From contig CP011806.1 of assembly GCA_001664505.1 (NCBI GenBank), forward strand, positions 4,546,332 to 4,578,331: DNA of 32,000 nucleotides, given 5' to 3'. Every line of letters starts with the position of its first letter. Positions within the stretch are counted from its first letter, which is position 1. The notes beneath the pieces are model-generated. The model ran no database searches, was not told the origin of the DNA, and saw only the letters and a list, made by a program, of their open reading frames with translations. Positions 2,371 through 20,220 of this stretch are shown here, piece after piece. Origin of the DNA: Acidobacteria bacterium Mor1 (GTDB lineage: Bacteria; Acidobacteriota; Polarisedimenticolia; Polarisedimenticolales; Polarisedimenticolaceae). The position numbers and the translations under genes were made by a program.

Positions 2371-3040
2371 ACCTGTCGCGCCGCTTGCGCCGGACACCGG
2401 CATGGCCGGCCTGGCCGACGCGCTGCTCAAGCGGCCCCGCGGCCTGATCGAACGCTTCGACCGGGGAGACGTCTCCGCCATCGAGTGGCGGCTGCTGGGT
2501 ATCGCGCTGTTCGGTTACGTCGGCTACGGCGTGCTGGTCGGCAGCTTCTCCGGGGGCACCCAGTGGTGGGCCGGGCCGCTCAAGGTGGTGGCGGTCGGCG
2601 TCGGCGCCAGCGCGATCTGTCTGCCGAGCCTCTACGTCTTCTCGGCGCTGGGCATGGCCCGGGTACGGCTACGCCACGTGGTGGATCTGCTGCTGGCTCA
2701 ACTCGCCCTCAGCAGCATCCTGCTGCTGGGCTTCCTGCCGGTGGGTTGGGTCTTCTCCCAGTCGACCAGGTCCGCGGCGTTCATGGGAATGATCCACCTC
2801 GGGCTCGGGGTGATCGCGATGTCCTTCGGCCTGCGACTGCTCTTCGCCGGGTTTCAGTTGTTCGAGATGCGTCGAGACGGCTACGTGCGGCTGTGGGTGA
2901 TGATCTTCCTGATCACGTCCCTACAGCTCACCACGGCGCTGCGGCCGATCCTGGGTGAAGCGGAGACGGTGCTGCCCCAGGAAAAGAAATTCTTCCTCCA
3001 GCACTGGGGAGAGTCCTTCGTTCGCGATATCGAGGACTAG
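2318..3040 (+). CDS. Polytopic integral membrane protein, unknown function (paralog B of a tandem pair)
   Basis: ATG at 2318 is preceded by GAGAGGAAG. The 240-aa product has the same helix layout as the upstream gene and a matching tail ...LTTALRPILGEA...KKFFLQHWGESF. It overlaps the upstream gene by 53 nt in the +1 frame. Confidence 0.65.
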   Translation: MSDHQQPTPPTTDPADAEPVAPLAPDTGMAGLADALLKRPRGLIERFDRGDVSAIEWRLLGIALFGYVGYGVLVGSFSGGTQWWAGPLKVVAVGVGASAICLPSLYVFSALGMARVRLRHVVDLLLAQLALSSILLLGFLPVGWVFSQSTRSAAFMGMIHLGLGVIAMSFGLRLLFAGFQLFEMRRDGYVRLWVMIFLITSLQLTTALRPILGEAETVLPQEKKFFLQHWGESFVRDIED

Positions 3041-3048
3041 CGGCGCGG

Positions 3049-4062
3049 TCAGCCTGCGGTCTCGACCGGGCTCTCGTCGGGGACGTGTTGCAGGGCGTCG
3101 AGCAGCACCCGGGCGTCGGTGGCCCGGGGCCCTTCGACACTGAGTTGCCGCCGGTAGGCGCGGGCTCCGGGGAGCCCGGTAAAGAGGCCCAGCAGGTGAC
3201 GGGTGACGTGATGCCCCTTGTAGCCCTCGGCCAGGAAAGCCTCGAGGTAGGGCATCATCTGCTTGACCACCTGGTGCCGGGTCGGCGCTGTGGCGTCGTC
3301 GCCGAACAGCCGGCGATCGGCGCCGGCCAGCAGGTAGGGGTTGTCGTAGGCCGCCCGGCCGATCATCACCCCGTCCACCCGCCGGAGATGTTCCTCGGTG
3401 GCGTCGAGGGTCAGCACGCCGCCGTTCAGTTCGATGCGCAGCTCGGGAAACGCCTGCTTCAGCCGGTAGACGTCGTCGTAGCGCAGCGGCGGCACCGTGC
3501 GGTTCTCCTTGGGGCTCAGGCCCTTGAGCCAGGCCTTGCGGGCATGGACGCTGAAGCGGTCGCTGCCGCTCCGGCGGACGATCTCGACGAAGCGCGCCAT
3601 GTCCTCGTAGCGATCGAGGTCATCGACGCCGATGCGGTGCTTGACGGTGACCGGCAGCTCGACCCGGCTGCGCATGGCGGCGACACACTCGGCGACCCGC
3701 TCCGGCTGCTTCATCAGGCAGACGCCGAAGTTGCCTCCCTGGACCCGGTCGCTGGGGCAGCCGACGTTGAGGTTGATCTCGTCGTAGCCCATGTCCTCGG
3801 CGATGTGGGCGCACTCGGCCAGGGCCGCCGGATCGTCGCCGCCGAGCTGCAGCGCCAGGGGTTTCTCCCGCAGGTCGAACCCGAGGTAGCGCTCCCGGTT
3901 GCCCCGCAGGATTGCCGGGGTGGTGACCATCTCGGTGTAGAGCAGGGTGTGCCGGGTGAGCAGGCGGGCGAAGAATCGATAGTGCCGGTCGGTACAGTCC
4001 ATCATCGGCGCCACGCTCAGCGGGCGCTGGGTACCCCGGGGACCATGCGGCGCGTTGCTCAC
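3049..4062 (-). CDS. dusA: tRNA-dihydrouridine synthase A
   Basis: The translation LSVAPMMDCTDRHYRFFARLLT...LYTEMVT...NLNVGCPSDRV...VTVKHRIG is a clear DusA-type FMN TIM barrel. I placed the start at GTG 4062 (337 aa, normal DusA length), which forms a GTGA overlap with the upstream stop. Confidence 0.85.
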   Translation of the reverse strand: MSNAPHGPRGTQRPLSVAPMMDCTDRHYRFFARLLTRHTLLYTEMVTTPAILRGNRERYLGFDLREKPLALQLGGDDPAALAECAHIAEDMGYDEINLNVGCPSDRVQGGNFGVCLMKQPERVAECVAAMRSRVELPVTVKHRIGVDDLDRYEDMARFVEIVRRSGSDRFSVHARKAWLKGLSPKENRTVPPLRYDDVYRLKQAFPELRIELNGGVLTLDATEEHLRRVDGVMIGRAAYDNPYLLAGADRRLFGDDATAPTRHQVVKQMMPYLEAFLAEGYKGHHVTRHLLGLFTGLPGARAYRRQLSVEGPRATDARVLLDALQHVPDESPVETAG

Positions 4063-4466
4063 GATTCTTCCGACGGCTCCGGTTTCTTCTTGAGGAACTT
4101 GTCCGGATCCCACTCGATCAGCGGCTCCGGTTCCGGCTCGGGGGCCTTCTCTTCCTGGGGAGCCGGGCCGACCAGCACGTCCTCCCCCTCGATCTTGACC
4201 GGGAAGATCTTGGCGCAGTTGGCCCGGGCCATGTCGCAGGCGCCGGTCTCCAGGTCGTAGGCCCAACCGTGCCAGGAGCAGATCACCTGGCCGCGGCCGA
4301 CGACGCTGTCGGCCAGGGAGGCGCCCATGTGGGGGCAGGCGTCCTGGATCGCGTAGATCCGGTCGGCGATGCGGATCACCGCCACGGTGGTGTCGTGGAC
4401 CTTGATCGCCTTCCCGCGCAGATCCTTGAAGTCGGATTTGACGCCGACCTTGATGAACTCGCTCAT
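4059..4466 (-). CDS. Small Rieske [2Fe-2S] ferredoxin (NirD-like) with a Pro/Glu/Lys-rich C-terminal tail
   Basis: The product starts MSEFIKVG at ATG 4466. Both Rieske ligand motifs are present: CPHMG (CxH) and CSWHGW (CxxH). The start overlaps the EEP stop (TGATG) and the stop overlaps the dusA start (GTGA). Confidence 0.8.
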   Translation of the reverse strand: MSEFIKVGVKSDFKDLRGKAIKVHDTTVAVIRIADRIYAIQDACPHMGASLADSVVGRGQVICSWHGWAYDLETGACDMARANCAKIFPVKIEGEDVLVGPAPQEEKAPEPEPEPLIEWDPDKFLKKKPEPSEES

Positions 4467-5206
4467 CAGTGCACCTCGAAGTCGGCGATCAGCGGTAGAT
4501 GATCGCTGGCCACCTTGGACAACGCCAGCCGGCAGGTGCGCGCCTGGCGGTGGCGGATGTCCCCCTTGTAGAAGATCTTGTCCAGTCCGCCGGTAGGAGA
4601 GAACGACGGGTAGGTGCGAATCGACGACCCCGGCGCACGGTCGGTCGCCGACTTGAAGTCCAGGATGTAGGTCAGGATCGGTACCAGCTGGGCGCGCCAA
4701 TCGTTGAAGTCGCCGCCGATCATGCACGGACCGCGGCTGCGGAGCTTCTTGAACTCGTCGGCGTGGGCCAACCGGCCGATCTGATGCACCCGCTCGGTGG
4801 CCGACAGACCCAGGTGCAGGTTGAACATCTCCATGGTGCGGAAGTAGCCGTTGACCTTGTTCAGCTGCAGCCGGGTGTAGAGGCAGCCGCGCTTTTTCTT
4901 GTTGCCGATGGTCAGATCGATGTTGCGCTGCTTGGTGATCGGAAAGCGGCTGAGGGTCGCGTTCCCGTAGCGTCCATGGCGCAGCTTGACGTTGTGGCCC
5001 ACGGCGTAGTGCTCGAACTTCAGGTCCCGGGCCAGCTCCCGGGCCAGGTCCAACCCGCGGGAGCGGGGGGCGCCCTCGTCGACCTCCTGGAGCAACACCA
5101 GATGCGGATCGTGGTGGGAGATGATCTCCACGATGCGCTCGGGGCGGAAGCGCCGGTCGACGCCGATGGCCCGATGGATGTTGTAGGTCAGAACCCGAAT
5201 GTGCAC
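4466..5206 (-). CDS. Endonuclease/exonuclease/phosphatase (EEP) family protein
   Basis: GTG start at 5206. MHIRVLTYNIHRAIG...HLVLLQEVD...GGDFNDW...SDHLPLIADF are the hallmark EEP catalytic motifs. Confidence 0.8.
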   Translation of the reverse strand: MHIRVLTYNIHRAIGVDRRFRPERIVEIISHHDPHLVLLQEVDEGAPRSRGLDLARELARDLKFEHYAVGHNVKLRHGRYGNATLSRFPITKQRNIDLTIGNKKKRGCLYTRLQLNKVNGYFRTMEMFNLHLGLSATERVHQIGRLAHADEFKKLRSRGPCMIGGDFNDWRAQLVPILTYILDFKSATDRAPGSSIRTYPSFSPTGGLDKIFYKGDIRHRQARTCRLALSKVASDHLPLIADFEVH

Positions 5207-5316
5207 GGCCGGTGCCCTAGGACGTTGAGACAGAACAAGTTACGCTGTGGGACGGATCTTGTCGAGGCCGCCGCTCCCATGTAGGCTGACCTCCTGCCCC
5301 CAGGGGTGTTTTTGAC

Positions 5317-6285
5317 GTGGCAGGTATGGATCGACCGATTCCACTCATCATTCTCGGCGGTAGCGACCGGCGCGGGTCGGAGCTTCCCCCCGAGGGTGCG
5401 GACAAGCATGCGCTGTCCGGCTACAAGGGCGCCGAGATGCGCGTCGAGGGCCGGCCGTTGGTCGAGATCGTCGCCGAGCGGATGACCGCCGGCGGGGTGC
5501 TGGGACCCGTGCGCGTTGCGGGACCCGCCGAGGTGTATCGCCGCGCCGGCGTCAATCTCGGCGTGATCGACACCGACGACAGCTTCGGCGGCAACATCCA
5601 GGCCGCCATCGAGGCGACCCGGACCGAGTTCCCCGACTCACCGGTCGCGATCACCACCGCCGACATCCTGCCCGAGGTCGACGATGTAAAGCGCATGGTC
5701 GACGACTACCTGGCCGCCGCGCCGCTGGCATTCTGGGGCGCGTTCATTCGCACCCCGGAAGACCGTCAAGCCCTCGGAGCCTCGGCGTGGAAGCCCAGGT
5801 ACCGCATGGTGGAGCGGAAGGGGGAGGCGCCCGCGGCGATCCTGCCGGGGCATCTGGCCATCGTGTTGCCCCGGGCGCTCAAGTTGCGCTTTCTCTACGA
5901 CCTGGTGGACCTGACCTACCGCAGCCGCAACAAACCGATCGCCTACCGGCGTAGCTACATCGTGCGCGGGTTGATCTGGGGCATGCTGCTTCAGGATCTG
6001 CGGCATCTGGCCACCCTGCGGGTGCCCAACGTGACCTGGAACATGCTGCGCACCGGTCTCGCGGCGGCCAAGGGGCTCAAGGACGGCGACATCCTGTTGT
6101 CCGACCTGGAGCAGGCGATCGAGCGGATCTTCGTGCGTACCGAACATCGCCGGCGGCATCCGCACAGCGTGCGGCTACCGATTCTCGAGGGGCTCTCACT
6201 GGCCGAGGACATCGACACCGCCGAGGAGGCGGCGGAGAAGGGTGCCGAGGCGGGTGGCCCGATGCGGGATCAGAGCAGCTTGTAG
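5317..6285 (+). CDS. Nucleotidyltransferase-like (MobA/GT-A fold) N-terminal domain protein with an uncharacterised C-terminal half
   Basis: IPLIILGGSDRRG...GRPLVEIV...ITTADILP resembles NTP_transferase-type glycine-rich loop proteins. The start is either GTG 5317 or ATG 5326. I do not recognise the C-terminal 170 aa. Confidence 0.45.
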   Translation: MAGMDRPIPLIILGGSDRRGSELPPEGADKHALSGYKGAEMRVEGRPLVEIVAERMTAGGVLGPVRVAGPAEVYRRAGVNLGVIDTDDSFGGNIQAAIEATRTEFPDSPVAITTADILPEVDDVKRMVDDYLAAAPLAFWGAFIRTPEDRQALGASAWKPRYRMVERKGEAPAAILPGHLAIVLPRALKLRFLYDLVDLTYRSRNKPIAYRRSYIVRGLIWGMLLQDLRHLATLRVPNVTWNMLRTGLAAAKGLKDGDILLSDLEQAIERIFVRTEHRRRHPHSVRLPILEGLSLAEDIDTAEEAAEKGAEAGGPMRDQSSL

Positions 6286-7007
6286 CTCGCCGGGTCTGCC
6301 CGCAGGGTCAGCACGTCGCCGCGCCGTTCGACCTCGCCGTGGATCTCCACCGGCTCGGCGATCATCTCCAGCACCCGATCGTTGACCGCGTTCCCCTGCT
6401 CATCGACGAGGAACAGGTAGGAGAGTTCTCCGCTCTCGCTCTCCACCCGCAGCACCGGCGGGACGCCGCCGCGGATACAGAGGATCGCGCAGGCCTTGTG
6501 GGGCTTGCCCCGGCCCGGCTTCATCACGCCCAGGTGGCACTTGGAGTCGACAATCTCGCCGGTGAAGCTGAAGGTGCCGAGCTCCATCCCGCCGGCGAGG
6601 CTCTGCCGCGCATCCCCCAGGGGTTCCAGCTCGTGGACCTCGATCATCTGCTCCTGGTCGTTCCAGATCCGCGAGCCGGTGATGCGCACCCGTTTGCCGT
6701 CGTGTCCCGCGGTCAGGCTCTCGGCGCCGAACTTGCCGAAGGCGACCAGTAGATGGCTTCCCGGGTATTCCCCGTCGTCGACGACCAGCAGCGGGTAGGG
6801 GTGCTCCAGCAACACTCCCTCGAAGGTGCGGTCGATGCCGAACTCGAAGGCGCCAGGATCGAAGGGGGACTGTAGCGCCGCCAGCGCTCCGGCAACGCCG
6901 GCGGCCAGCAGCAGGATCAGCAGGATGCTTCGCTTGACGTGGGCGGCGATGCCCGCCGGAGCCTCGGGTAGGTAGCCGACGTAGAACTCGTCGTCGTTGT
7001 GGCTCAT
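6270..7007 (-). CDS. N-terminally TM-anchored exported protein with a conserved-looking Cys/His motif, unknown function (gene 4 of the redox cassette)
   Basis: The product starts MSHNDDEFYVGYL at ATG 7007, which forms an ATGA overlap with the upstream stop. It has one TM helix (SILLILLLAAGVAGALAAL). This is followed by about 200 aa of beta-rich-looking sequence containing DSKCHLGVMKPGRGKPHKACAILCIRGG. Confidence 0.6.
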   Translation of the reverse strand: MSHNDDEFYVGYLPEAPAGIAAHVKRSILLILLLAAGVAGALAALQSPFDPGAFEFGIDRTFEGVLLEHPYPLLVVDDGEYPGSHLLVAFGKFGAESLTAGHDGKRVRITGSRIWNDQEQMIEVHELEPLGDARQSLAGGMELGTFSFTGEIVDSKCHLGVMKPGRGKPHKACAILCIRGGVPPVLRVESESGELSYLFLVDEQGNAVNDRVLEMIAEPVEIHGEVERRGDVLTLRADPASYKLL

Positions 7008-8047
7008 GAGCTCCCTCGGATCGGTGCGGGTTCGGCCCGTTGCCCTGCAGGGTTCGGTTCCGGATCGACGTAGACCTCGCCGGAGACCACCCGCACGTTG
7101 AAGGTCGGGATCTTCTCGGTGAACGGCGGCGGCGACGCTCCCGTTTCGGGTTCGTACTGATAGCCGTGCCAGGGGCACGTGATGCAGCCGTCGACGATGC
7201 GGCCCTCGCCCAGCGGTCCGTTCTGGTGCTGACAGGCGTTACTGACCGCGGAGATCGTGTCTCCGTTGCGGAAGATCGCGACCCGTTCGCCGGAGATGCA
7301 GACGATCCGGGCCCGCTTGTCTTTGATATCGGCGACGGCGCAGGCGTGGAGGTAGCCGTCGATGACATCCCCCCGGTGCGGCGCGTCTCCCGGCTTCTCG
7401 CGGAAGCCGGCGACCAGATGCAGGGTGACGATCCAGCCGAAGCCGCCGACCAACAGGCCGATCAACACCAGGTTGCGTTCGGTCTGCAGGATCCCCAGCG
7501 CGACGTGGAGTACCAACAGCAGGTAGGCCACGTAGACCAGCATGTGCAGCGCTTTCCAGACCGGCGCCGACAGGTTGGCCAGCCAGAAGTCGTGACTGGT
7601 CGCCGCCATCAGGAACAGGATGCCGAGCGCGACGAAGCCGAGCGTCTGGAAGGGGAAGGCGCTGATGCTGGCGTACTGGGGGTTGCCTGCCAGCAGGCTG
7701 ACCAGCGGATTGACATCCCCCAGGGCGTGGAACTGGATCATCGAGAACGCGCCGTGGACCAGGGCGCAGAGGAACATGCTGACGCCCAGGTGGCGACGGT
7801 TGTAGAGCAGGGGCAAGAAACGCCGGTCCAGCCGGGCCAGCGGCCCGACCGACAGGATCACGTGGAGCATCAAGAGCGCCAGGGTGCCGAAGGCGCGGAT
7901 GATCAGGGTCTCGGGGGTCGCCTCAGGGCGCAATGCCGCGCCGAGCCCGACGAACAGGCCGATGTAGAGCAGGATGCCGGCGAGGATCGTCAGGTCGTAG
8001 CGCTTCTTCTGCCGGTTCCACAGGACCGCCTGATAACCCGCGCTCAT
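7004..8047 (-). CDS. Fusion protein: ferric-reductase-like (MsrQ/YedZ-type, putative heme b) 6-TM domain plus C-terminal Rieske [2Fe-2S] domain
   Basis: The N-terminal 210 aa has six hydrophobic helices with the RRHLGVSMFLCALVHGAF signature and further intramembrane His (LHVIL, QFHAL, LHMLV, LHVAL). The C-terminal domain has CQH and CPWHGYQY Rieske ligand motifs. There are ATGA overlaps at both ends. Confidence 0.7.
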   Translation of the reverse strand: MSAGYQAVLWNRQKKRYDLTILAGILLYIGLFVGLGAALRPEATPETLIIRAFGTLALLMLHVILSVGPLARLDRRFLPLLYNRRHLGVSMFLCALVHGAFSMIQFHALGDVNPLVSLLAGNPQYASISAFPFQTLGFVALGILFLMAATSHDFWLANLSAPVWKALHMLVYVAYLLLVLHVALGILQTERNLVLIGLLVGGFGWIVTLHLVAGFREKPGDAPHRGDVIDGYLHACAVADIKDKRARIVCISGERVAIFRNGDTISAVSNACQHQNGPLGEGRIVDGCITCPWHGYQYEPETGASPPPFTEKIPTFNVRVVSGEVYVDPEPNPAGQRAEPAPIRGSS

Positions 8048-8193
8048 GGAGCTTCCTCTTGAACCGCAGCGGGGATCGACTCGACCCGCGGGATCGGCCG
8101 GTCGCCGCTGAGCGCGACGAACAGCAGCACCCAGCCGATCAGGGCGATGGCCAGAAACATCATCCGGTGACGGCTGCGCAGGGGGCGAATCAT
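8044..8193 (-). CDS. Very small single-TM membrane protein (49 aa), gene 2 of the redox cassette
   Basis: The product is MIRPLRSRHRMMFLAIALIGWVLLFVALSG.... Its ATG 8193 overlaps the upstream stop (ATGA), and its stop overlaps the downstream ATG 8047 (ATGA). This double coupling argues that it is real. Confidence 0.5.
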   Translation of the reverse strand: MIRPLRSRHRMMFLAIALIGWVLLFVALSGDRPIPRVESIPAAVQEEAP

Positions 8194-8444
8194 CCGGCGC
8201 TCCCGCGGCGGTGAGCGGAACGCTCCACCGGTGGCTGCTTGCCGCCGGCCCAGCGCAGAAGCATCAGCGGCCACAGCGCGGCGACGCCGGGAAGGATCAT
8301 CACCCGGAAGCCCGGCTTGCTCCCCGGGGCCGCCGGGTCGACCCGGTTGACGCCGACCAGGACGAAGGCCACGGCGAACAGCAGGCCGATAGCGGCGTAG
8401 AGCACCAGCGCGTACGAGAACCAGAGAGCGATTTGTTCGAGCAT
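8190..8444 (-). CDS. Small 2-3 TM membrane protein (84 aa), gene 1 of the redox cassette
   Basis: ATG 8444 is preceded on the minus strand by AAGGAA. The hydrophobic product is MLEQIALWFSYALVLYAAIGLLFAVAFVLVG...ILPGVAALWPLMLL. Confidence 0.6.
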   Translation of the reverse strand: MLEQIALWFSYALVLYAAIGLLFAVAFVLVGVNRVDPAAPGSKPGFRVMILPGVAALWPLMLLRWAGGKQPPVERSAHRRGSAG

Positions 8445-8475
8445 GCTGATTCCTTGGCCTCCCGGGCTCGAGATG

Positions 8476-9171
8476 TTACCCGATTCGAGAACGTCGCCGG
8501 ACGCCCCACAGCACGGCGCCTGCGGTCGTCAGCGCCACCAGCAACAGCATGCCGGCGCCGTGAGAGGGGACCACGTGTCCCGCCTCGCCGAAGGGGCAGA
8601 TCAGGCGCCAGCAGGCATCGGCGAGCAGCGCCGCCGCCAGGCCGGCGAGGAGCCCTGCGCCGGCGGGCGCGGCGGGGAACCCCCGGGCCAGGATCAGTCC
8701 GGACCAGAGCGCGATCGGCAGGCCGAGGGCGAATTCGACGCCGAAGCAGAGGAAGCCCTCGGCGAGGCGTTTGTCCGCCGGCAGGCTCAAGGTCCCGGCC
8801 CGAGCGGTAAGGGTCATCGCGCATACGGCAATGAACACCGCCGAAGCGGTCAGCACCGAGATCCGTGCCGCCCGCAGTGCCGGCGCCGGGAGCGCGCCCC
8901 GCGCCGCACCGGCGAATAGCGGCAGGGCCATAGCGGCCTGGATCAGGGTCAAGCCCCAGAAGATCCACGGCCCGAGATCGGAGCGATCGGAACGGAGCCC
9001 CCAGCGGGAGGCCAGGACCGCGGCGCCCAGGCCCGCCAGGGCCAGCGCCCCCAGCAGCAGGGGAGCCAGCGGGCGCATCGGGGCCACCGGCTGCAGATCC
9101 TCGCGCAGCCGTTCGCGCAATGCGTCGAGCTCCGGCTTTCGATCATCGGCGGACACCCCCCGAGCGTACAC
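8476..9171 (-). CDS. NrsF-like (DUF1109 family) membrane anti-sigma factor candidate
   Basis: A short cytoplasmic N-terminus (...LRERLREDLQPVAP) is followed by about six TM helices. A Cys/His-containing segment (ADACWRLICPFGEAGHVVPSHG) lies near the C-terminus. This layout matches the anti-sigma partners of SigF-type ECF sigma factors. The start is GTG 9171 or GTG 9156. The gene ends 31 nt upstream of the next gene, which has its own SD. Confidence 0.5.
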   Translation of the reverse strand: MYARGVSADDRKPELDALRERLREDLQPVAPMRPLAPLLLGALALAGLGAAVLASRWGLRSDRSDLGPWIFWGLTLIQAAMALPLFAGAARGALPAPALRAARISVLTASAVFIAVCAMTLTARAGTLSLPADKRLAEGFLCFGVEFALGLPIALWSGLILARGFPAAPAGAGLLAGLAAALLADACWRLICPFGEAGHVVPSHGAGMLLLVALTTAGAVLWGVRRRSRIG

Positions 9172-9311
9172 CGATCCCGCTACGGGAAGCGCGGGATTCC
9201 AGCGCTTTTCGATCCCCGGGAATGAGCGAACGGGTCGCTCGGTTTACTGCACACGAACACGGCAGAGAACACGCCGGACGCCGGCGAGAAAAACGAATCG
9301 GAGGGAATAAA
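9172..9311. promoter_or_regulatory. Divergent control region between the nrsF-like operon (-) and doxX/ECF sigma (+)
   Basis: This is a 140-bp intergenic region between divergent starts. It contains hairpin ATCCCGC-N10-GCGGGAT (9174-9197), hairpin GAGCGA-N5-TCGCTC (9224-9240), and direct repeat GAACACGGC / GAACACGCC (9255-9263, 9267-9275). GGAAT pentamers face both directions (9219-9223 on +, 9200-9196 on -). I could not assign a promoter with confidence. Confidence 0.4.
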
Positions 9312-9728
9312 ATGAACCAGAAGACGATCAACATCACCAGTTGGGCACTGCGCATCGCCATCGCGGTCATCCTGCTTCAAACGCTGTTCTTCAAGTTCAC
9401 CGGCGCCCCCGAGTCGATCTACATCTTCGAGACCCTCGGCATGGAACCGTGGGGCCGCATCGGCAGCGGAATCGCCGAACTGATCGCCTCGGTGTTGCTG
9501 CTGGTTCCCCGGACCCGCATCTACGGTGTGTTGTTGTCCCTGGGCGTGATCGGCGGCGCCATCGTCAGCCACCTGACGACCCTCGGTATCGTCGTGCAGA
9601 ACGACGGCGGAACCCTGTTCGGTATGGCGCTCTTCATCTTCTTCGCCGATCTGGTTCTGTTGGCGCTGCACCGCTCGGAGCTCCCGGTGGTCGGCGCGCA
9701 CTTCGTGCCCTCTCATTCCCGCAGCTGA
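9312..9728 (+). CDS. DoxX family membrane protein
   Basis: ATG 9312 is preceded by GGAGGGA. The 138-aa, 4-TM product (...ILLQTLFFKFTGAPESIYIFETLGMEPWGRIGSGIAELIASVLLL...) is typical of the DoxX family. Confidence 0.75.
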   Translation: MNQKTINITSWALRIAIAVILLQTLFFKFTGAPESIYIFETLGMEPWGRIGSGIAELIASVLLLVPRTRIYGVLLSLGVIGGAIVSHLTTLGIVVQNDGGTLFGMALFIFFADLVLLALHRSELPVVGAHFVPSHSRS

Positions 9729-9769
9729 TTCCGGAACGAATCGCAAGGCTTCCGGAAGGAGGGGGAACG

Positions 9770-10327
9770 ATGAGCGACACGATCTGCGATCACCCGGTCG
9801 ATGAGCTCGAAGGGTTGATGCGCCGCTACCAGCAGGGAGATGCCGCGGCCTTCGACCGCATCTTCCGCTCGATGACCGGCACCCTGCGCGGCTACTTCCT
9901 GGCGCGGCGCCTGCTGCCCGAGAAGGCCGAGGACCTGGTGCAGGAGACCTTCCTGCAGATCCACCGGGCGCGGCACACCTATCAGCCCGGCCGGCCGGTG
10001 CGGCCCTGGTTCCTCGGAGTCGCCCGTCACGTCTATCTGATGGACCGCCGGGCGGCGGCTACCCTCAGCCGGCGCAACACCCAGCCCCTCGAGGGGGCAC
10101 CGGAGCCCGCGGTCGATCCGGCCCAGCTGAAGCTGGGCGATCGCCAGCGGGTCGGCCGCGCCGTATCCGGACTCAGCGAGGGAAACCGTCAGACGCTGCT
10201 GATGCACCACGTGTGGGGCATGAGCTTCAAGGAGGTCGCCACCGCGCTGGGGATTCGCGAGGGGGCGGCCAAGGTGCGCTCCCACCGTGCGCTGCGGGAT
10301 CTGCGTCTCGCGCTGGAGGAGAGCTGA
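9770..10327 (+). CDS. ECF (sigma-70 family, group 4) RNA polymerase sigma factor
   Basis: ATG 9770 is preceded by GGAAGGAGGGGG. Region 2 (AEDLVQETFLQIHRARHTY...RPWFLGVARHVYLMDRR) and region 4 (LSEGNRQTLLMHHVWGMSFKEVATALGIREGAAKVRSHRAL) are both recognisable. Confidence 0.85.
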   Translation: MSDTICDHPVDELEGLMRRYQQGDAAAFDRIFRSMTGTLRGYFLARRLLPEKAEDLVQETFLQIHRARHTYQPGRPVRPWFLGVARHVYLMDRRAAATLSRRNTQPLEGAPEPAVDPAQLKLGDRQRVGRAVSGLSEGNRQTLLMHHVWGMSFKEVATALGIREGAAKVRSHRALRDLRLALEES

Positions 10328-10385
10328 CCGCCGGTCGCCGGCTTCCCGCCGGCCGCTCATGAACCATCCGGGCTAGACTGCGGCG

Positions 10386-11423
10386 ATGGACGAGATCCCG
10401 ACCCGCCGCATCTACGCCGAGCGCCTCAACCGCGTCCTCGACTACATCGCCGCCAACCTCGAAGGGGATCTCTCCCTCGAGAGCCTGGCACAGGTCGCGT
10501 GTTTTTCGCCCTATCACTTCCACCGGCTGTTCAAGGGCGCCTTCGGCGAGACCGTCCACCAGCACGTGCAGCGCCAGCGCCTGGAACGATCCGCCCGGCT
10601 GCTCAAGTCGGCACCGGATCGCACCGCCACCGAAATCGCTCTCGAGGTCGGCTACCCCGGACTGTCTGAGTTCTCCCGGGCGTTCAAGAAACACTTCGGC
10701 ACCAGCCCCGGTGCGTGGGACCGGGTCACGCCGCTGCCGAACAGCAAGATCTGCCAAGCGCCGGAACCCTTCCCCCGGTACGATCCCGCCGAACTGGCCG
10801 AGATCGAGGCCAGGCAGGAGTTCCGGATTCGTATGAAGACCTTTCCCCGCAGCCGCTTCGCCTTCTTCAGGGTGCACGACGCCTACGGCAATCAGCGCCT
10901 GGTGGATGCCTACACCCAGTTGATTGCCTGGCTCGGCAGTCAGGGGTTGGGCTACCGGGACGTGGTGATCGCCGGGATGAGCCAGGACGACCCCGAGGTC
11001 ACGCCGCCGGAGAAGTGCCGCTACGACATGGGCGCCCTGTGGCCGCTGGACCTGGACCTCGAGTCCGCCGACCCGCTGGCCGACGCCGGTGTGCTGGGCG
11101 GGCTCTTGTCCGAGCGCGGTCCGGACGCCGCGGCATTGTCCCGCACGTCGCGGGCGGTCGAGGCCTGGCGCCCCGGGGGAACGCCCCTTGCCGAGGGGAT
11201 GTCTTTCCGTGATTTCGACGCCTGCCCCGCCGCCTGCATGTACCTGGGCGGCGCTCTCGATCTGTTCGACCGGGCCTATCAGTTCCTGTTCCGGCACTGG
11301 CTCCCCGAGAGCCGCTACATGCCGGCGGACCTACCCGGGATGGAACTCTTCCGCCGGGTGCCCGAGGAGATCGGCTGGGAGACCTTCGATATCGAGAGCG
11401 TGCTGCCGCTGGCGGCACCCTAG
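10386..11423 (+). CDS. AraC family transcriptional regulator with C-terminal GyrI-like effector-binding domain
   Basis: The N-terminal double HTH reads [25 protein letters not shown]...[31 protein letters not shown]. The C-terminal half ([18 protein letters not shown]...[18 protein letters not shown]) resembles a GyrI/Rob-type ligand domain. Confidence 0.8.
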
Positions 11424-12118: not shown

Positions 12119-12216
12119 GTGCGGCTCCTTCCTGCGGGTCGCCTCATCCTAGCAGCCCCTCTCCGCCCACCTTCGCCGCCGGCCTCGGAGGGCAGGCCTC
12201 GCGATCGCCGCGATTT

Positions 12217-12225
12217 TGGTATCAT
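12217..12225 (+). promoter_or_regulatory. Candidate extended -10 promoter element (TGgTATCAT) upstream of the tricorn-like protease gene
   Basis: TGGTATCAT lies at 12217-12225, 42 nt upstream of ATG 12267. No convincing -35 is present. This rests on sequence pattern only. Confidence 0.3.
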
Positions 12226-12266
12226 GGCGCCCTCACAAATACAGCTATGGGGCGTTGGAGGTATCG

Positions 12267-15200
12267 ATGTCGGTGATGCGTCGGGGGCTCATCTGTCTGC
12301 TTCTCTGTCTGTTTGCCGTTTCGGCGGCGGCCCAGACCAAGTTGTTGCGCTTTCCGGATGTCCATGGCGACCAGGTGGTCTTCACCTACGCCGGCGATCT
12401 CTGGTTGGCCTCGACCTCGGGAGGCAGCGCGACCCGGCTGACGACCCACGACGGTGTCGAGCAGTTCGCCCGGTTCTCGCCCGACGGCAACTGGATCGCC
12501 TTCACCGGCCAGTACGACGGTGACGAGCAGGTCTACGTGATCCCGACCCGGGGCGGCGCGCCCCGGCAGCTGACCTTCTATCCCGCCTTCGGGCCGCTGC
12601 CCCCGCGCTGGGGCTCCGACAACCAGGTCTACGGCTGGTCTCCCGACGGCAAGAGCGTGCTGTTCCGTTCGATGCGGGGCGGCTTCGACCTGACCGACAC
12701 CCAGCTCTACACCGTGCCCGTCGACGGCGGCCTACCGGTCGCCTTGCCGATGCCGACCTCGGGCGCCGGCGAGTTTTCCCCCGACGGCAAGCAGGTGGTC
12801 TACAGCCCGCTGGTGCGGGACTTCCGCACCTGGAAGCGCTACGAAGGGGGCTGGGCGCAGAATCTGTTCATCTTCGACCTGAAGAAGAACACGGCGACCC
12901 AGATCACCGACGACAAGCGCACCGAGCGGGACCCGATGTGGATCGGCGACGCGATCTACTTCGCCTCGGATCGCGACGGCACCCTCAACCTCTATCGCTA
13001 CGCCACAGGTTCCGGCGAGGTCTCCCAGATCACCCGCAGCAAGAAGTGGGACGTGCGCTGGCCCTCCAGCGACAACAAGGGGCAGATCGTCTACGAAGAG
13101 GGGGGCGAGTTGCGCCTGCTCGATGTGAGCGCCGGCTCGGCCAGGCCCCGGCCGATCTCGATCTTCGTCCCCGACGACGGGATCAACCGCCGGCCGTCGC
13201 GGATCGACGTCTCCCGCTCCATCGCCGACTTCAGCCTGAGCCCCAAGGGGGAGCGGGCGCTGTTCACCGCCCGCGGCGACATCTTCACCGCTCCGATCGA
13301 GAACGGCCGTTCGCGCAACCTGACCCGCAGCTCCGGCGCTCATGACAAGGGGCCGGTCTGGTCCCCCGACGGTTCCCGGATCGCGTTCATCTCCGACCGC
13401 ACCGGCGAGGAGGAGATCTGGCTGATCGCTCAGGACGGTTCCGGCGAACCGACCCAGCTGACCCGGGGCGGGAACGCCATGCGCTACACCCCGGCCTGGG
13501 CGCCCGACGGCAAGCGGCTGGCCTTCAGCGACAAGGACGGCAAGATCTACGTCGTCGAGGTCGACGGCAAGAAGATGATGGAGGTTGCCGACGAGGAGCG
13601 CGGGCAGGTCCAGGACTACGTCTGGTCGCCCAACGGCGGCCACCTGGCCTTTACCCTGTCGGATCTCAACGGCTTCAACGCGATCTGGGTCTGGAGCGTC
13701 GAGAGCGGCAAGACCCGCCGAGTCACCGGCGAGTTGTTCAACGAGTACAACCCGGCCTGGGGTCCGAAGGGAGACTACCTCTTCTACCTGAGCGATCGTC
13801 AGTTCCAGCCGCAGATCGGTTCGATCGAGTGGAACTACGTGGTCGACCGGGAGACCGGGATCTACGCAGTGGCCCTGCGCGACGACGTCGAGCATCCGCT
13901 TCCGCCGCGCAACGACGAGGTCACCATCGACAAGAAAGACGACGATTCCGGCGACGCCGAGCCGGTCGATGAGGACGCAGACAAGGAGAAACAGGCCGAA
14001 GAGGAGGCCTACATCGAGATCGACTTCGACGGCATCGCCGACCGGGTCGCCCGCATGCCGGTCTCCGACGACAACCTGACCGGCCTGGCTGCCGGTGACG
14101 GGCTGCTGTTCTTCGTCCGTACCTCCCCCTTCTACTACGGCCGCGGCTCCGACCGTCCGCCGGCGCTTCAGGTGTTCTCGTTCAAGGATCGCAAGGTCAC
14201 GACCCTGGCGGATCCGATGGGCGGCTACGACCTGTCGATGGACCGCAAGAAGGTTCTGGTGCGCGAGGGGGGCGGCTTCAAGCTCTACGACGCCGGCCCC
14301 AAGGGTGAGGGCAAGGCGGTTCGCCCGGAGCTGGGTGTCGACCGGGTTCCCGCCGAGGAGTGGGCGCAGATCTTCGACGAGGTCTGGCGCCGCTTCCGGG
14401 ATTTCTTCTACGTCGAGAACATGCACGGCTACGACTGGGACGCCCTGCGTGGGCAGTACCGGCCGTTGCTCGAGCACGTGGCTCATCGCTCGGACCTCAA
14501 CTACGTGATCGGCGAGATGATCGCCGAACTCAACGTCTCCCACGCCTACATCTCCGGCGGGGACTACGACATTCCGGAACGGCCTTCGGCGGCGCTGCTG
14601 GGCGCGGCGATCGAGCTGGACCGCAAGTCCGGCCGCTACCGTTTCTCCCATGTCCACCGGGGGCACAACGAGGAGCCTCGCTACCGCTCGCCGCTGACCG
14701 AGATCGGCGTCGGCGTCGGCGCCGGACACTACCTGCTGGCCATCGAGGGGCAAGAACTCGGAGCCGGAGACAACCCCTACGAGATGCTGCGCCACCGCGG
14801 CGGCGAGGGGCTGGAGCTGACCGTCAACGACAAACCGACCCTCGAGGGCTCTCGCAAGGTGCGGATCGACCCGATCTCCGGGGAGCGCAGCCTGCGCTAC
14901 CTCGAGTGGGTCACCGCCAATCGTGAGAAGGTGTCCGAGGCCACCGGCGGCCGGGTCGGCTACCTGCATATTCCCGACATGGGCGCCAACGGCATCCGGG
15001 AGTTCATCAAGTACTACTACGGCCAGGTGCGCAAGGAAGGGCTGGTCGTCGACGTCCGGGGCAACGGAGGCGGCAACGTCTCCCAGATGATCATCGAGCG
15101 CCTCGGCCGGGACCTGCTGGGTACGCGCTTCATCCGCACCAGCGAGACTCCGGGCACCTATCCGAACACCGTGTTCCACGGCCACATGGTCTGCATTCTC

Positions 15201-15557
15201 GATGAGGATTCGGCATCGGATGGTGATATCTTCCCGTACCGGTTCCGGCAGGCCGGGCTCGGTCCGCTGATCGGCAAGCGCTCCTGGGGTGGGGTCATCG
15301 GCATCACCAACCGGGGCACGCTGATCGACGGCGGCACGGTCAACGTGCCGGAGTTCGGCACCAACGCTCCCGACGGCAGCTGGATCATCGAGGGCACCGG
15401 AGTCGAGCCCGATATCGAAGTCGACAATCCGCCGAGCGCGGTCCTGGCCGGCAAGGACCCCCAGCTCGAGCGGGCCATCGAGGAAGTACTTGCGGCGATG
15501 AAGCGTGAGCCGCGCACCATGCCCGATCGCCCCGCCGATCCGGTGCGGACCCGCTAG
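12267..15557 (+). CDS. Tricorn-type protease homolog (beta-propeller / PDZ / S41 peptidase), with signal peptide
   Basis: ATG 12267 is preceded by GGAGG. The signal peptide is MSVMRRGLICLLLCLFAVSAAAQ. The tricorn N-terminus is LLRFPDVHGDQVVFTYAGDLWLAS..GG.ATRLT. TolB-like repeats follow (FSPDGK.., WSPDGS.IAF, WAPDGKRLAF). The S41 core reads VGYLHIPDMG...LVVDVRGNGGGNVS...ILDEDSASDGD. Confidence 0.85.
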   Translation: MSVMRRGLICLLLCLFAVSAAAQTKLLRFPDVHGDQVVFTYAGDLWLASTSGGSATRLTTHDGVEQFARFSPDGNWIAFTGQYDGDEQVYVIPTRGGAPRQLTFYPAFGPLPPRWGSDNQVYGWSPDGKSVLFRSMRGGFDLTDTQLYTVPVDGGLPVALPMPTSGAGEFSPDGKQVVYSPLVRDFRTWKRYEGGWAQNLFIFDLKKNTATQITDDKRTERDPMWIGDAIYFASDRDGTLNLYRYATGSGEVSQITRSKKWDVRWPSSDNKGQIVYEEGGELRLLDVSAGSARPRPISIFVPDDGINRRPSRIDVSRSIADFSLSPKGERALFTARGDIFTAPIENGRSRNLTRSSGAHDKGPVWSPDGSRIAFISDRTGEEEIWLIAQDGSGEPTQLTRGGNAMRYTPAWAPDGKRLAFSDKDGKIYVVEVDGKKMMEVADEERGQVQDYVWSPNGGHLAFTLSDLNGFNAIWVWSVESGKTRRVTGELFNEYNPAWGPKGDYLFYLSDRQFQPQIGSIEWNYVVDRETGIYAVALRDDVEHPLPPRNDEVTIDKKDDDSGDAEPVDEDADKEKQAEEEAYIEIDFDGIADRVARMPVSDDNLTGLAAGDGLLFFVRTSPFYYGRGSDRPPALQVFSFKDRKVTTLADPMGGYDLSMDRKKVLVREGGGFKLYDAGPKGEGKAVRPELGVDRVPAEEWAQIFDEVWRRFRDFFYVENMHGYDWDALRGQYRPLLEHVAHRSDLNYVIGEMIAELNVSHAYISGGDYDIPERPSAALLGAAIELDRKSGRYRFSHVHRGHNEEPRYRSPLTEIGVGVGAGHYLLAIEGQELGAGDNPYEMLRHRGGEGLELTVNDKPTLEGSRKVRIDPISGERSLRYLEWVTANREKVSEATGGRVGYLHIPDMGANGIREFIKYYYGQVRKEGLVVDVRGNGGGNVSQMIIERLGRDLLGTRFIRTSETPGTYPNTVFHGHMVCILDEDSASDGDIFPYRFRQAGLGPLIGKRSWGGVIGITNRGTLIDGGTVNVPEFGTNAPDGSWIIEGTGVEPDIEVDNPPSAVLAGKDPQLERAIEEVLAAMKREPRTMPDRPADPVRTR

Positions 15558-16924: not shown

Positions 16925-17306
16925 GGACGGCCTGGCTCTCGAGTGGTTGCCCGGCGAACTCGCCGTGGTGCGGCTCGGCGCGTCGGATCCGCTGCCCGAA
17001 TGGGCCCTACGCGGCCTGGTTCACGGTATGGTGCGCACTCCCGACGAGTTGTCCATCGTCTGCGCCGCGGCAGAGGTGCCCCATGAGGTGCAGGCCGAGC
17101 GGGGTTGGCGCCTGTTGCGGGTGCGTGGCCCCCTTCAGTTCGACCTGACCGGAATCCTGGCCTCGTTGACCGGCCCGTTGGCCGCCGCCGGAGTGCCGAT
17201 CTTTTCGATCTCGACCTTCGACACCGACTACCTGATGATCCGTGCCGCCGACGCCTCCCGGGCGACCGAAGCGTTGAGCCGAGCCGGACACCGTTTCGAC
17301 GAGTAG
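16911..17306 (+). CDS. ACT domain-containing protein (ACT_7-like)
   Basis: LAVVRLGASDPLPEWA...ELSIVCAA...WRLLRVRGPLQFDLTGILASLTGPLAAAGVPIFSISTFDTDYLMI matches small stand-alone ACT proteins. The gene overlaps folA by 14 nt. Confidence 0.7.
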   Translation: MSVAEDGLALEWLPGELAVVRLGASDPLPEWALRGLVHGMVRTPDELSIVCAAAEVPHEVQAERGWRLLRVRGPLQFDLTGILASLTGPLAAAGVPIFSISTFDTDYLMIRAADASRATEALSRAGHRFDE

Positions 17307-17311
17307 CCCCT

Positions 17312-18100
17312 ATGTGTCTGATCGCCGTCGCTCACCAGGCGAGCCCCCGCTACCGGTTGGTCGTCGCGGCCAATCGGGATGAGTTCCACCAGCGGCCCAC
17401 CCGTGAGGCGCGTTTCTGGGGCGTGTACCCCAGTTTGCTGGCCGGGAAGGACCTGGAAGGTGGAGGGACCTGGATGGGGGTCTCCCGGGACGGCCGGGTC
17501 GCCGCCATCACCAACTTCCGCGAACCGGGCAAGAGTCGCAGCGACGCCGTCTCCCGGGGGCTGCTGGTGCGGGACTTCCTCACCGGGAATGCGGGGCCGC
17601 TGGACTACGTCCAGCAGGTCACCCTGGAAGAACAGGAATTCAACGGGTTCTCGCTGCTGGCCTTTCAGGGCGAAGAGCTGGCCTGGATCTCCAACCGCCA
17701 TCCCGGCGCCGGGGCGCTGGCCCCGGGCATCTACGGGTTGAGCAACGCAGTGCTGGATACTCCGTGGCCCAAGGTCTGCCGCCTCAAGGACCGCCTGGAA
17801 ACCCTGGTGAGCCGGGACGAGCCGTTGGACGCCGAGTCGGTCTTCGCGGCCCTGGCCGACCGGGTCACCCCCGACGACGCCGATCTGCCCGAGACCGGCG
17901 TGGGGCTGGAGCGGGAGCGGGTGCTCTCGCCGGTCTTCATCGACACCCCCCAGTACGGCACCCGGTGCTCGACCCTGGTGACCATCGACTACGACGGGCG
18001 GCTGACCTTCATCGAACGCAGCTACGGACCCGCCGCAGCGCCCCTGGGCGAGGTTCGCTTCGATTTCCGCATCGAGTCCCAACGGGAGGCGACACCGTGA
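17312..18100 (+). CDS. NRDE family protein (TANGO2 / DUF833 homolog)
   Basis: The N-terminus MCLIAVAHQASPRYRLVVAANRDEF contains the N-terminal Cys and the eponymous NRDE motif. ...GGTWMGV...ITNFRE... is consistent with this family. Confidence 0.8.
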   Translation: MCLIAVAHQASPRYRLVVAANRDEFHQRPTREARFWGVYPSLLAGKDLEGGGTWMGVSRDGRVAAITNFREPGKSRSDAVSRGLLVRDFLTGNAGPLDYVQQVTLEEQEFNGFSLLAFQGEELAWISNRHPGAGALAPGIYGLSNAVLDTPWPKVCRLKDRLETLVSRDEPLDAESVFAALADRVTPDDADLPETGVGLERERVLSPVFIDTPQYGTRCSTLVTIDYDGRLTFIERSYGPAAAPLGEVRFDFRIESQREATP

Positions 18101-20095: not shown

Positions 20096-20220
20096 GACCC
20101 GCGAAGATACCGCGTCTCTCGGGGCTTTGCGCGGCCGAATCATCCGGGTGACAATTTGGGGTCCGGCTGCAACAACGGCCGGGACTCAGGCGTTTCCGGG
20201 GGCAGGAGAGGAGCACGCCT

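Follow-up and report, generated by a model that had tools for sequence, protein, structure and literature searches.

The four-gene module and its distribution

In this study, we analyzed a stretch of 32,000 nucleotides from Acidobacteria bacterium Mor1 (subdivision 22; contig CP011806.1; referred to as the window, GC content 67%), which carries on its minus strand four adjoining genes for membrane proteins, here called g1 to g4. The first gene of this module, g1 (8190..8444; ANM31128.1, ABI59_18445), encodes a small membrane protein of 84 amino acids (aa) with two predicted transmembrane (TM) helices and is followed by g2 (8044..8193), encoding a single-pass membrane protein of 49 aa that represents a short form of its family. 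The third gene, g3 (7004..8047; ANM31127.1), encodes 347 aa, in which an MsrQ/YedZ-like domain of six TM helices is joined to a C-terminal Rieske domain, and the last one, g4 (6270..7007; ANM31126.1, ABI59_18435), encodes 245 aa comprising an N-terminal tail, one TM helix and two OB barrels. Reading of the strand revealed ATGA stop/start overlaps at all three junctions, namely at 8193-8190 (g1/g2), 8047-8044 (g2/g3) and 7007-7004 (g3/g4). The list of open reading frames (ORFs) and the strand reading thus gave exactly the four minus-strand genes, lengths and three overlaps contained in a preliminary description of this DNA. All four ORFs show a coding-type composition, with a GC content at third codon positions of 0.83-0.89 where measured, and an Rfam scan as well as a repeat scan of positions 5500-10800 returned no RNA element and no meaningful repeat.

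In order to follow the module through other genomes, one genome per species was scanned for the g3 fusion, and the best 80 of at least 591 carriers were taken with 6-kb flanks. Relatives of the fusion are hence present in at least 591 species-representative genomes. Homologues of g3 number at least 8000, of which the top 120 share its architecture and show 64-95% identity along the entire length. The 80 loci span about ten phylum-level groups (Acidobacteriota, Verrucomicrobiota, Planctomycetota, Gemmatimonadota, Bacteroidota, Myxococcota, KSB1, Krumholzibacteriota, Kiritimatiellia and Gammaproteobacteria). Upstream of the fusion, 77/80 loci carry a homologue of g1, and 76/80 carry one of g4 immediately downstream; in the remaining four loci, which are without g4, the contig runs out no more than a few hundred bases from the fusion. 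The co-occurrence of the four genes in other genomes, which the preliminary description had proposed to check, is found at nearly every locus that is long enough. In an exhaustive profile search, the g4 family alone comprised 2590 clusters at 50% identity.

The junctions themselves are conserved as well. The 4-bp overlap is present between g1 and g2 in 44/56 loci and likewise between g2 and g3 in 44/56, while the g3/g4 junction shows an overlap of 4 bp in 36, of 8 bp in 12 and of 1 bp in three out of 76 loci. Since these overlaps are kept across phyla, they exceed what chance would produce. In six genomes, g3 and g4 form a single fused ORF (L005, L031, L033, L041, L068 and L080 in our numbering of the related loci), and two independent fusion clusters (P0266 and P0322) contain proteins of 603 aa and 631 aa that read Ferric_reduct, Rieske and then g4. 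Natural fusions of this kind are classical evidence that two proteins act together, which argues for joint action of g3 and g4. In one further g3-g4 fusion, P0259, the membrane domain appears incomplete around TM4-TM5, and this protein may reflect an assembly artefact or a degenerate gene copy. Overall, these findings establish g1-g4 as a real and widespread four-gene module.

The two small membrane proteins were compared with Pfam and NCBIfam (g1) and with Pfam (g2, short and long forms), and no matching family was found for either of them. In g1, the TM segments cover residues 12-30 and 45-63 and are followed by a C-terminal tail rich in Lys and Arg; its conserved positions include Y16, G20, D36, F46-R47 and W58-P59. 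For g2, an ORF with the N-terminal motif M-I-x-P-L-R-x-x-H-R and one TM helix lies between g1 and g3 in 57 loci, and we therefore consider g2 a real gene, whose homologues escaped a plain search because of its shortness. Short forms, including the Mor1 type, have 33-62 aa; long forms of 130-184 aa add a conserved periplasmic domain (PDxLxYW ... LLG ... LYSLAH). The motif-bearing N-terminal tail of g2 is predicted to be cytoplasmic. The exact 49-aa sequence is missing from a public collection of 15 billion proteins, which does contain g1, g3, g4 and the neighboring nrsF of Mor1 (see below), and g2 was for this reason probably left unannotated in the deposited Mor1 genome.

The Rieske-fused protein g3 and its partner g4

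Conserved domain searches assigned both halves of g3. Residues 54-179 match PF01794 (Ferric_reduct) with 54.9 bits (cut-off 28), and residues 234-304 match PF00355 (Rieske) with 55.1 bits (cut-off 20.3); PF13806 matches the latter part, too. The two families anticipated for the 347-aa protein were thus both obtained above the Pfam cut-offs, and PF01794 was also found on all 120 listed g3 homologues. The membrane domain (residues 1-221; 7385..8047, minus strand) is supported by alignment with MsrQ, hydropathy and an AlphaFold2 (AF2) model with a pLDDT of 86.4. Hydropathy and model agree on six long TM helices, after which the model shows a beta domain.

Comparing this domain to Escherichia coli MsrQ with hhalign, we obtained an E value of 2.1e-5 at 32% identity over 131 columns. 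In this alignment, R84-R85 of g3 correspond to R77-R78 of MsrQ, H98 to H91, M147 to L131, S151 to S135, W164 to W147, H168 to H151 and H181 to H164. As shown in a study from 2025, MsrQ contains one heme b together with one FMN; R77, R78 and H151 are needed for FMN retention, and the pocket is lined by W147, L131 and S135 (PMC12525009). Among 81 orthologues of g3, the counterparts R84, R85, S151, W164 and H168 are invariant, and M147 is replaced by Leu in 6/81. H98 on TM3 and H181 on TM5 both match the outer-heme His pair of the ferric reductase superfamily. In the YedZ/STEAP clade, an Arg replaces the first canonical TM3 heme His and only the outer heme is present (PMC3591440); R84-R85, invariant in the 81 sequences, carry this signature. 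Based on the conserved FMN-pocket residues and the Arg found where the first TM3 His would be expected, g3 most likely binds one outer heme (H98/H181) and an inner flavin instead of two hemes. The initial assignment to an MsrQ/YedZ/Fre-type heme b domain accordingly stands with regard to the MsrQ homology and the retained heme His pair, and is refined with regard to the cofactors, which would be one heme plus a flavin.

The intramembrane His residues that had drawn attention to g3 are indeed conserved: H86, H98, H107, H152, H168 and H181 are invariant in the 81 fusion proteins, and H62 is His in 69/81. Of these, the invariant H86, H107 and H152 as well as H62 are without a counterpart in MsrQ. 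Against the NCBIfam equivalog model for MsrQ (NF003831), g3 reached 37.3 bits, far below the cut-off of 130, and it is therefore not an MsrQ orthologue. Searches of Pfam and NCBIfam returned no match to FAD_binding_8 or NAD_binding_6 in g3, and no F420-type domain.

The Rieske domain (residues 232-327; 7067..7354, minus strand) carries the ligands C272-x-H274 and C291-x-x-H294, which are invariant in the 81 sequences and lie in boxes reading CQHQNG and CPWHGY. Against profiles of PDB sequences, it matched the ferredoxins CarAc and BphF with E values of 9e-10 to 1e-7, and Foldseek returned target TM-scores of 0.79-0.88 at a root-mean-square deviation of about 2 Å and an identity of 32-34% to CarAc. 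By sequence as well as by fold, the top matches are CarAc, BphF and the naphthalene dioxygenase (NDO) ferredoxin, and the NCBIfam matches to Rieske ferredoxins are sub-threshold. The additional disulfide Cys pair of bc1-type proteins (CTHLGC/CPCHGS) is missing from g3. As judged from these sequence features, the domain is of the low-potential ferredoxin type, with the potential assigned by class. Rieske ferredoxins of oxygenase systems are low-potential proteins, which suits an entry of electrons from the cytoplasm.

The K/R-rich segments of g3, i.e. the N-terminal tail and the loop of residues 68-85, lie on the side that bears the flavin-pocket residues, and the Rieske domain is therefore predicted to be cytoplasmic. 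This agrees with the topology proposed earlier, given the six helices and the K/R-rich N-tail and loops; furthermore, in the natural fusions the C-terminus of the Rieske domain runs into the N-tail and TM helix of g4. It follows from these fusions that the Rieske C-terminus and the g4 N-tail share one side of the membrane and that the OB domains lie across the g4 TM helix. A periplasmic Rieske domain exported by the twin-arginine translocation (Tat) system was considered as well. Membrane Rieske proteins of the dual Sec/Tat type have an odd number of Sec helices, a twin-arginine motif and a final Tat helix exporting the Rieske domain, and the family combining a ferric reductase domain (FRD) with Rieske is not listed among them (Tooke et al. 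2017). In g3, the sequence before TM6 reads LQTERNL without an RR motif; the even helix count, the missing twin-arginine motif and the homology to the MsrQ topology together speak against Tat export, and this reading was rejected.

The partner protein g4 yielded an AF2 model of high confidence (pLDDT 89.9, pTM 0.80), in which a disordered but conserved N-terminal tail (FYVGYxPxAP) is followed by a helix (residues 18-44) and two tandem OB-fold barrels. The protein carries a Cys3-His-Met motif in residues 156-184 (6456..6542, minus strand), which reads K-C157-x2-G-x-M162-x-P-G-x4-H170-[RK]-x-C173-A-x2-C177-x2-G-G-x-P-P and is located in a helix-loop-helix insert between strands 1 and 2 of the second barrel in the model. 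The conserved residues of the insert are K156, C157, G160, M162, P164, H170, C173, A174, C177 and G180-G181. Among the 77 g4 sequences from the loci, C157, M162, H170 and C173 are kept in all and C177 in 76, and this conservation holds in 82 further sequences, making the motif a candidate metal or redox site.

Arg and Lys precede the TM helix of g4 and acidic residues follow it. Because of this charge pattern, together with the g3-g4 fusions, the OB barrels are predicted to be periplasmic, as had been proposed for the Cys/His-bearing domain behind an N-in anchor. Foldseek found generic OB folds only (SSB, RPA and anticodon domains of tRNA synthetases), and a profile search of PDB sequences returned no relative; its single match, to superoxide reductase, was insignificant (E = 1.3), and this candidate was dismissed. 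The sole Pfam match, to DUF5818 (PF19135), covers residues 101-129 and is sub-threshold with 21.3 bits vs 27. Consequently, g4 matches no known family, and three of the four module proteins belong to no described family, in line with the initial impression that the partners of g3 were unfamiliar. A periplasmic Fe-S cluster in g4 is unlikely given the N-terminus without a twin-arginine signal, and more plausible candidates are a redox-active pair of cysteines or a mononuclear site for Cu, Fe or Zn.

With moderate confidence, we favor the reading that g1-g4 form an inner-membrane complex of four subunits which carries electrons from the cytoplasm via the MsrQ-like domain to g4 outside the membrane. 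Our confidence in any specific substrate, such as Cu(II), an oxidized thiol or methionine, is considerably lower. In the proposed route, a cytoplasmic reductant would reduce the [2Fe-2S] center of the g3 Rieske domain; in some genomes, the likely donors would be Rieske-fused enzymes dependent on thiamine pyrophosphate (TPP) or FMN that are encoded next to the module (see below). Electrons would then pass from the Rieske domain to a flavin whose MsrQ/STEAP-type pocket (R84, R85, M147, S151, W164 and H168) lies where the helix bundle faces the cytoplasm, from there to the single heme b near the periplasmic face (H98/H181), and further to the Cys3-His-Met loop of g4 as terminal redox or metal site. 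Most probably, the complex would thereby reduce an oxidized species in the periplasm, be it a metal ion (for instance Cu(II)) or an oxidized protein or thiol group, and serve envelope redox maintenance. The small proteins g1 and g2 could be integral subunits or assembly factors that translational coupling keeps in fixed proportion, and the Mor1 copy would be placed under an envelope-stress switch of NrsF and an extracytoplasmic function (ECF) sigma factor.

Genomic neighborhood and regulatory context

Two cytoplasmic enzymes with an N-terminal Rieske domain adjoin the module in other genomes (L081, 5938-9546; L083, 11916-15763; L084, 5492-9046). One combines Rieske with a Glu_synthase/FMN enzyme (about 540 aa), the other Rieske with a TPP enzyme (about 650-685 aa); each was found in about ten loci from several phyla, and both architectures seem uncharacterized. 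With 34-49% identity to its counterpart in g3, the Rieske domain found in the TPP enzyme represents a paralogous module. Both enzymes are plausible cytoplasmic electron donors or acceptors for g3.

Such neighbors would also fit a function within the membrane, in which g3 passes electrons from cytoplasmic Rieske-linked dehydrogenases via flavin and heme to ubiquinone or menaquinone, comparable to PoxB or to succinate dehydrogenase with its heme b anchor. In that case, all electrons would stay within the membrane, and g1, g2 and g4 would have a structural role. Purified MsrQ carries ubiquinone, which was proposed as an electron acceptor (PMC12525009), and genes of an aa3-type oxidase adjoin the module in L082, a locus from Thermoanaerobaculia. 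However, the Rieske-fused dehydrogenases lie near only about 12% of the loci and are missing from the Mor1 window, whereas the constant partner of g3 is g4 with its invariant periplasmic Cys3-His-Met motif. Moreover, it is established for the characterized FRD proteins (MsrQ, STEAP and NOX) that the outer heme is oriented to the outside and reduces an external acceptor (PMC3591440). We thus regard an anchor for the quinone pool as unlikely. The oxidase operon of L082 (COX1, COX3, COX4_pro and COX2) lies together with a YHS gene directly upstream of the module (2629-6631), and these neighbors are a possible hint to a copper link.

A second set of neighbors recurs downstream of the module. It includes an OlsB-like GNAT (PF13444, GNAT5) in 32/80 loci, a PlsC acyltransferase in 17/80, YHS in 14/80, DinB_2 in 30/80 and TANGO2 in 24/80; in addition, about 20/80 loci have a DoxX_2 homologue no more than 6 kb from the module, and a fusion of alpha/beta-hydrolase and VTT/DedA (ABH-VTT; about 850-950 aa) lies nearby in 34/80. 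The string GNAT5, PlsC, YHS, DoxX_2, DinB_2, TANGO2 and ABH-VTT was seen in L003, L007, L016, L017, L028, L042, L046, L082 and others, and a decarboxylase dependent on pyridoxal phosphate (PLP) lies near the module in L081 and L084. The recurrent string looks like an aminolipid or envelope-remodeling cluster, and we found no published description of it.

These genes raise the question whether the complex takes part in lipid tailoring that depends on O2. The g4 metal site, fed with electrons by the complex, would then activate O2 and hydroxylate or otherwise alter aminolipids made by the OlsB-like GNAT and PlsC, in analogy to cytochrome b561, which feeds copper monooxygenases across the membrane. 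Such a role would be in accordance with the order of module core, GNAT5, PlsC, DinB_2, TANGO2 and ABH-VTT recurring across phyla and with the PLP decarboxylase in two loci. Nevertheless, we consider it quite improbable: the linkage is partial (at most about 40% of loci), the fold of g4 resembles no known oxygenase, and a three-Cys site is unusual for O2-activating centers. The string is also missing from the Mor1 window. In fact, this window holds neither of the two neighbor sets, except for a DoxX gene adjacent to the module and a TANGO2-family gene (17105-18100, plus strand; PF05742, 237 bits) located about 9 kb away.

The partner for which MsrQ is known was searched separately. Used as a tblastn query, E. 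coli MsrP gave no match in either the window or the 85 related loci (L001-L085), and no Oxidored_molyb family is among the recurrent neighbors, so that the module is without a molybdoenzyme partner, as noted at the outset.

In Mor1, the module is accompanied by regulatory genes. A gene for an NrsF-type anti-sigma factor (8476..9171, minus strand; ANM31129.1; PF06532, 34.8 bits vs 26.8) lies 31 bp upstream of g1; no terminator-like site was detected in the gap, and nrsF is probably co-transcribed with g1-g4. Divergent from nrsF, a DoxX_2-like membrane protein is encoded at 9312..9728 (plus strand; PF13564, E 4.5e-5, 24.0 bits and thus under the cut-off of 26.3). Downstream of it follows the gene of an ECF sigma factor (9770..10327, plus strand; Sigma70_r2, Sigma70_r4_2 and NCBIfam ECF models), the likely partner of NrsF, and directly after that an AraC-type regulator with a GyrI-like ligand-binding domain (10386-11423, plus strand), which may belong to one transcription unit with the DoxX and sigma factor genes.

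Published stimuli of SigF/NrsF systems are hypochlorite, chromate, cadmium and copper; the systems of Azospira and Caulobacter control yedYZ (msrPQ) and DoxX genes, and the Bradyrhizobium regulon is reported to contain yedY homologues (PMC4436054, PMC3511200). Since published SigF/NrsF regulons hold msrPQ, the Mor1 module occupies the place of MsrPQ in this setting, and the context hints at a control by envelope oxidant or metal stress in Mor1. Across genomes, NrsF and sigma factor lie by the module in 3/86 loci, namely those of the window, of L001 (its 95% relative) and of L083. In L083 the arrangement is divergent, and the sigma factor beside NrsF is 38% identical to that of the window. We therefore rejected the pair as part of the conserved module and regard it as lineage-specific. 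The sigma-F motif GTAACC-N16-CGAA gave only matches with two mismatches, 26 in the window compared to 16 ± 4 expected. The intergenic region 9172-9311 showed no convincing sigma-F-type match, and the acidobacterial sigma factor may use another motif. A scan for sigma-70 promoters found nothing.

The proximity of nrsF and its probable co-transcription with g1-g4 would also suit a sensor, in which the Rieske center, the heme or the cysteines of g4 signal the redox state of envelope or cytoplasm to NrsF/ECF sigma or a similar regulator instead of serving bulk electron transfer, all the more as NrsF signaling in Caulobacter relies on periplasmic cysteines (PMC3511200). We find this very unlikely, as the module is present in at least 591 species and the regulator beside it in 3/86 loci, the full set of MsrQ-type electron-transfer residues is invariant, and searches of Pfam and NCBIfam detected no output domain in any of the four proteins.

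Other genes in the surroundings of the module were recorded as follows. A convergent 322-aa ORF (5317-6285, plus strand) and the 3' end of g4 have 16 bp (6270-6285) in common; the only match of this ORF, to MobA-like NTP-transferases, is weak (E 0.006), and the ORF is kept beside the module only in the closest relative, L001. A separate Rieske ferredoxin of 134 aa (4062-4466, minus strand; PF00355, 52 bits), 29% identical to the g3 Rieske domain, might be a soluble redox partner of the module; the ATG of its gene overlaps the TGA of an upstream gene of the endonuclease/exonuclease/phosphatase family (4466-5206) in a TGATG junction. Further away, the window encodes a tricorn-like protease of 1113 aa (12216-15557, plus strand; PD40 repeats, Tricorn C1/PDZ, Peptidase_S41) and the apolipoprotein N-acyltransferase Lnt (18533-20143, minus strand), both of which are envelope-related and without evident link to the module.

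Several points weigh against the proposed electron transfer to g4. The Cys3-His cluster of g4 could be a structural zinc site; zinc-binding inserts occur in the same OB-fold loop of RPA70. The extra invariant residues H86, H107 and H152 of g3 might mean another set of cofactors. The neighboring GNAT5/PlsC, DinB_2, TANGO2 and ABH-VTT genes point to membrane-lipid or thiol chemistry, which the model leaves unexplained, and on the regulatory side the NrsF/sigma link is limited to the three loci given above and no sigma-F-type promoter is detectable above chance. In addition, whereas the genes with their coupling and conservation, the domain assignments, the conserved cofactor residues and the g3-g4 fusions are shown by the data, we infer cofactor occupancy, the direction of flow, the role of g4 as acceptor and the substrate. 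Finally, the heme of E. coli MsrQ has a potential of about -250 mV (PMC12525009), which is below that of typical Rieske ferredoxins, so that the initial transfers are not necessarily exergonic.

Comparison with known systems

The combination of FRD and Rieske was described by Zhang et al. in 2013 as 'model M4', one of six modular extensions of the FRD in bacteria, which were said there not to persist (PMC3591440). The domain combination is identical to that of g3, but the catalogue is restricted to architecture and gives no partners, operon, conservation or function. Apart from this listing, we found no functional study of the module in the literature, which bears out the earlier statement that no characterized system of this composition was known. 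The distribution reported here shows that FRD plus Rieske is persistent and widespread, and corrects the view of FRD fusions as short-lived in bacteria.

Few routes are known by which electrons reach the periplasm from the cytoplasm, among them DsbD/CcdA, MsrQ and respiratory chains. The module would add a route with a fused Rieske domain as entry point and an entirely new terminal protein. Going further, g4 might represent a new class of periplasmic redox metalloproteins, i.e. a tethered tandem OB-fold reductase fed by a Rieske-flavin-heme wire from the Rieske-fused 2-oxoacid (TPP) and FMN enzymes, an idea we put forward as a tentative and rather doubtful one. If true, this would be an unrecognized, widespread way of delivering metabolic reducing power to the envelope in non-proteobacterial phyla (Acidobacteriota, Verrucomicrobiota, Planctomycetota, Gemmatimonadota and Bacteroidota), serving copper or iron reduction or the repair of oxidant damage. 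It would parallel MsrPQ and DsbD with an evolutionarily distinct catalytic subunit. The carriers, hundreds of species, belong to soil and water phyla that are experimentally poorly studied, and the module offers a concrete handle on their envelope redox or metal homeostasis and a testable role for three protein families.

Regarding g4, a comparison suggests itself with CusF, a small periplasmic OB-type barrel that binds Cu(I) via His and Met. Likewise, g4 places His, Met and Cys on a periplasmic OB barrel, but it differs in its second barrel, its TM anchor and its three invariant Cys, and neither the profile search of the PDB nor Foldseek gave a sequence or significant structural match between them. 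The Rieske domain of g3 shares the CxH...CxxH ligands and the role of a one-electron shuttle with its best matches, CarAc, BphF/BphA3 and the NDO ferredoxin. These are free soluble proteins that serve oxygenases, whereas in g3 the domain is attached to a heme-type membrane domain, and the module encodes no oxygenase.

With STEAP and NOX/FRE proteins, g3 shares the six-helix ferric reductase domain. Reduction of Fe(III) and Cu(II) on the outer side of the membrane is carried out by STEAP and FRE proteins and is, by analogy, a candidate chemistry for the module. In contrast to them, g3 is without an NADPH/FAD dehydrogenase or F420-type domain and would receive its electrons through the Rieske domain, and the module encodes a dedicated periplasmic partner. 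The long forms of NOX/FRE have a C-terminal FAD/NAD(P)H dehydrogenase domain and four heme His residues, neither of which applies to g3. The replacement of the first TM3 heme His by Arg is a trait that g3 has in common with STEAP and YedZ (PMC3591440).

The closest parallel is provided by MsrPQ (YedYZ). The membrane domain of g3 is homologous to MsrQ and keeps the heme His pair and the FMN-pocket residues; both systems would link a cytoplasmic electron source via a flavin/heme membrane protein to a periplasmic partner encoded next door, and both are tied to SigF/NrsF regulons and DoxX. However, the module has a fused Rieske domain instead of the separate reductase Fre, adds two small membrane subunits and carries the invariant H86, H107 and H152 that are absent from MsrQ, and its partner is a membrane-anchored tandem OB-fold protein in place of the molybdenum enzyme MsrP.

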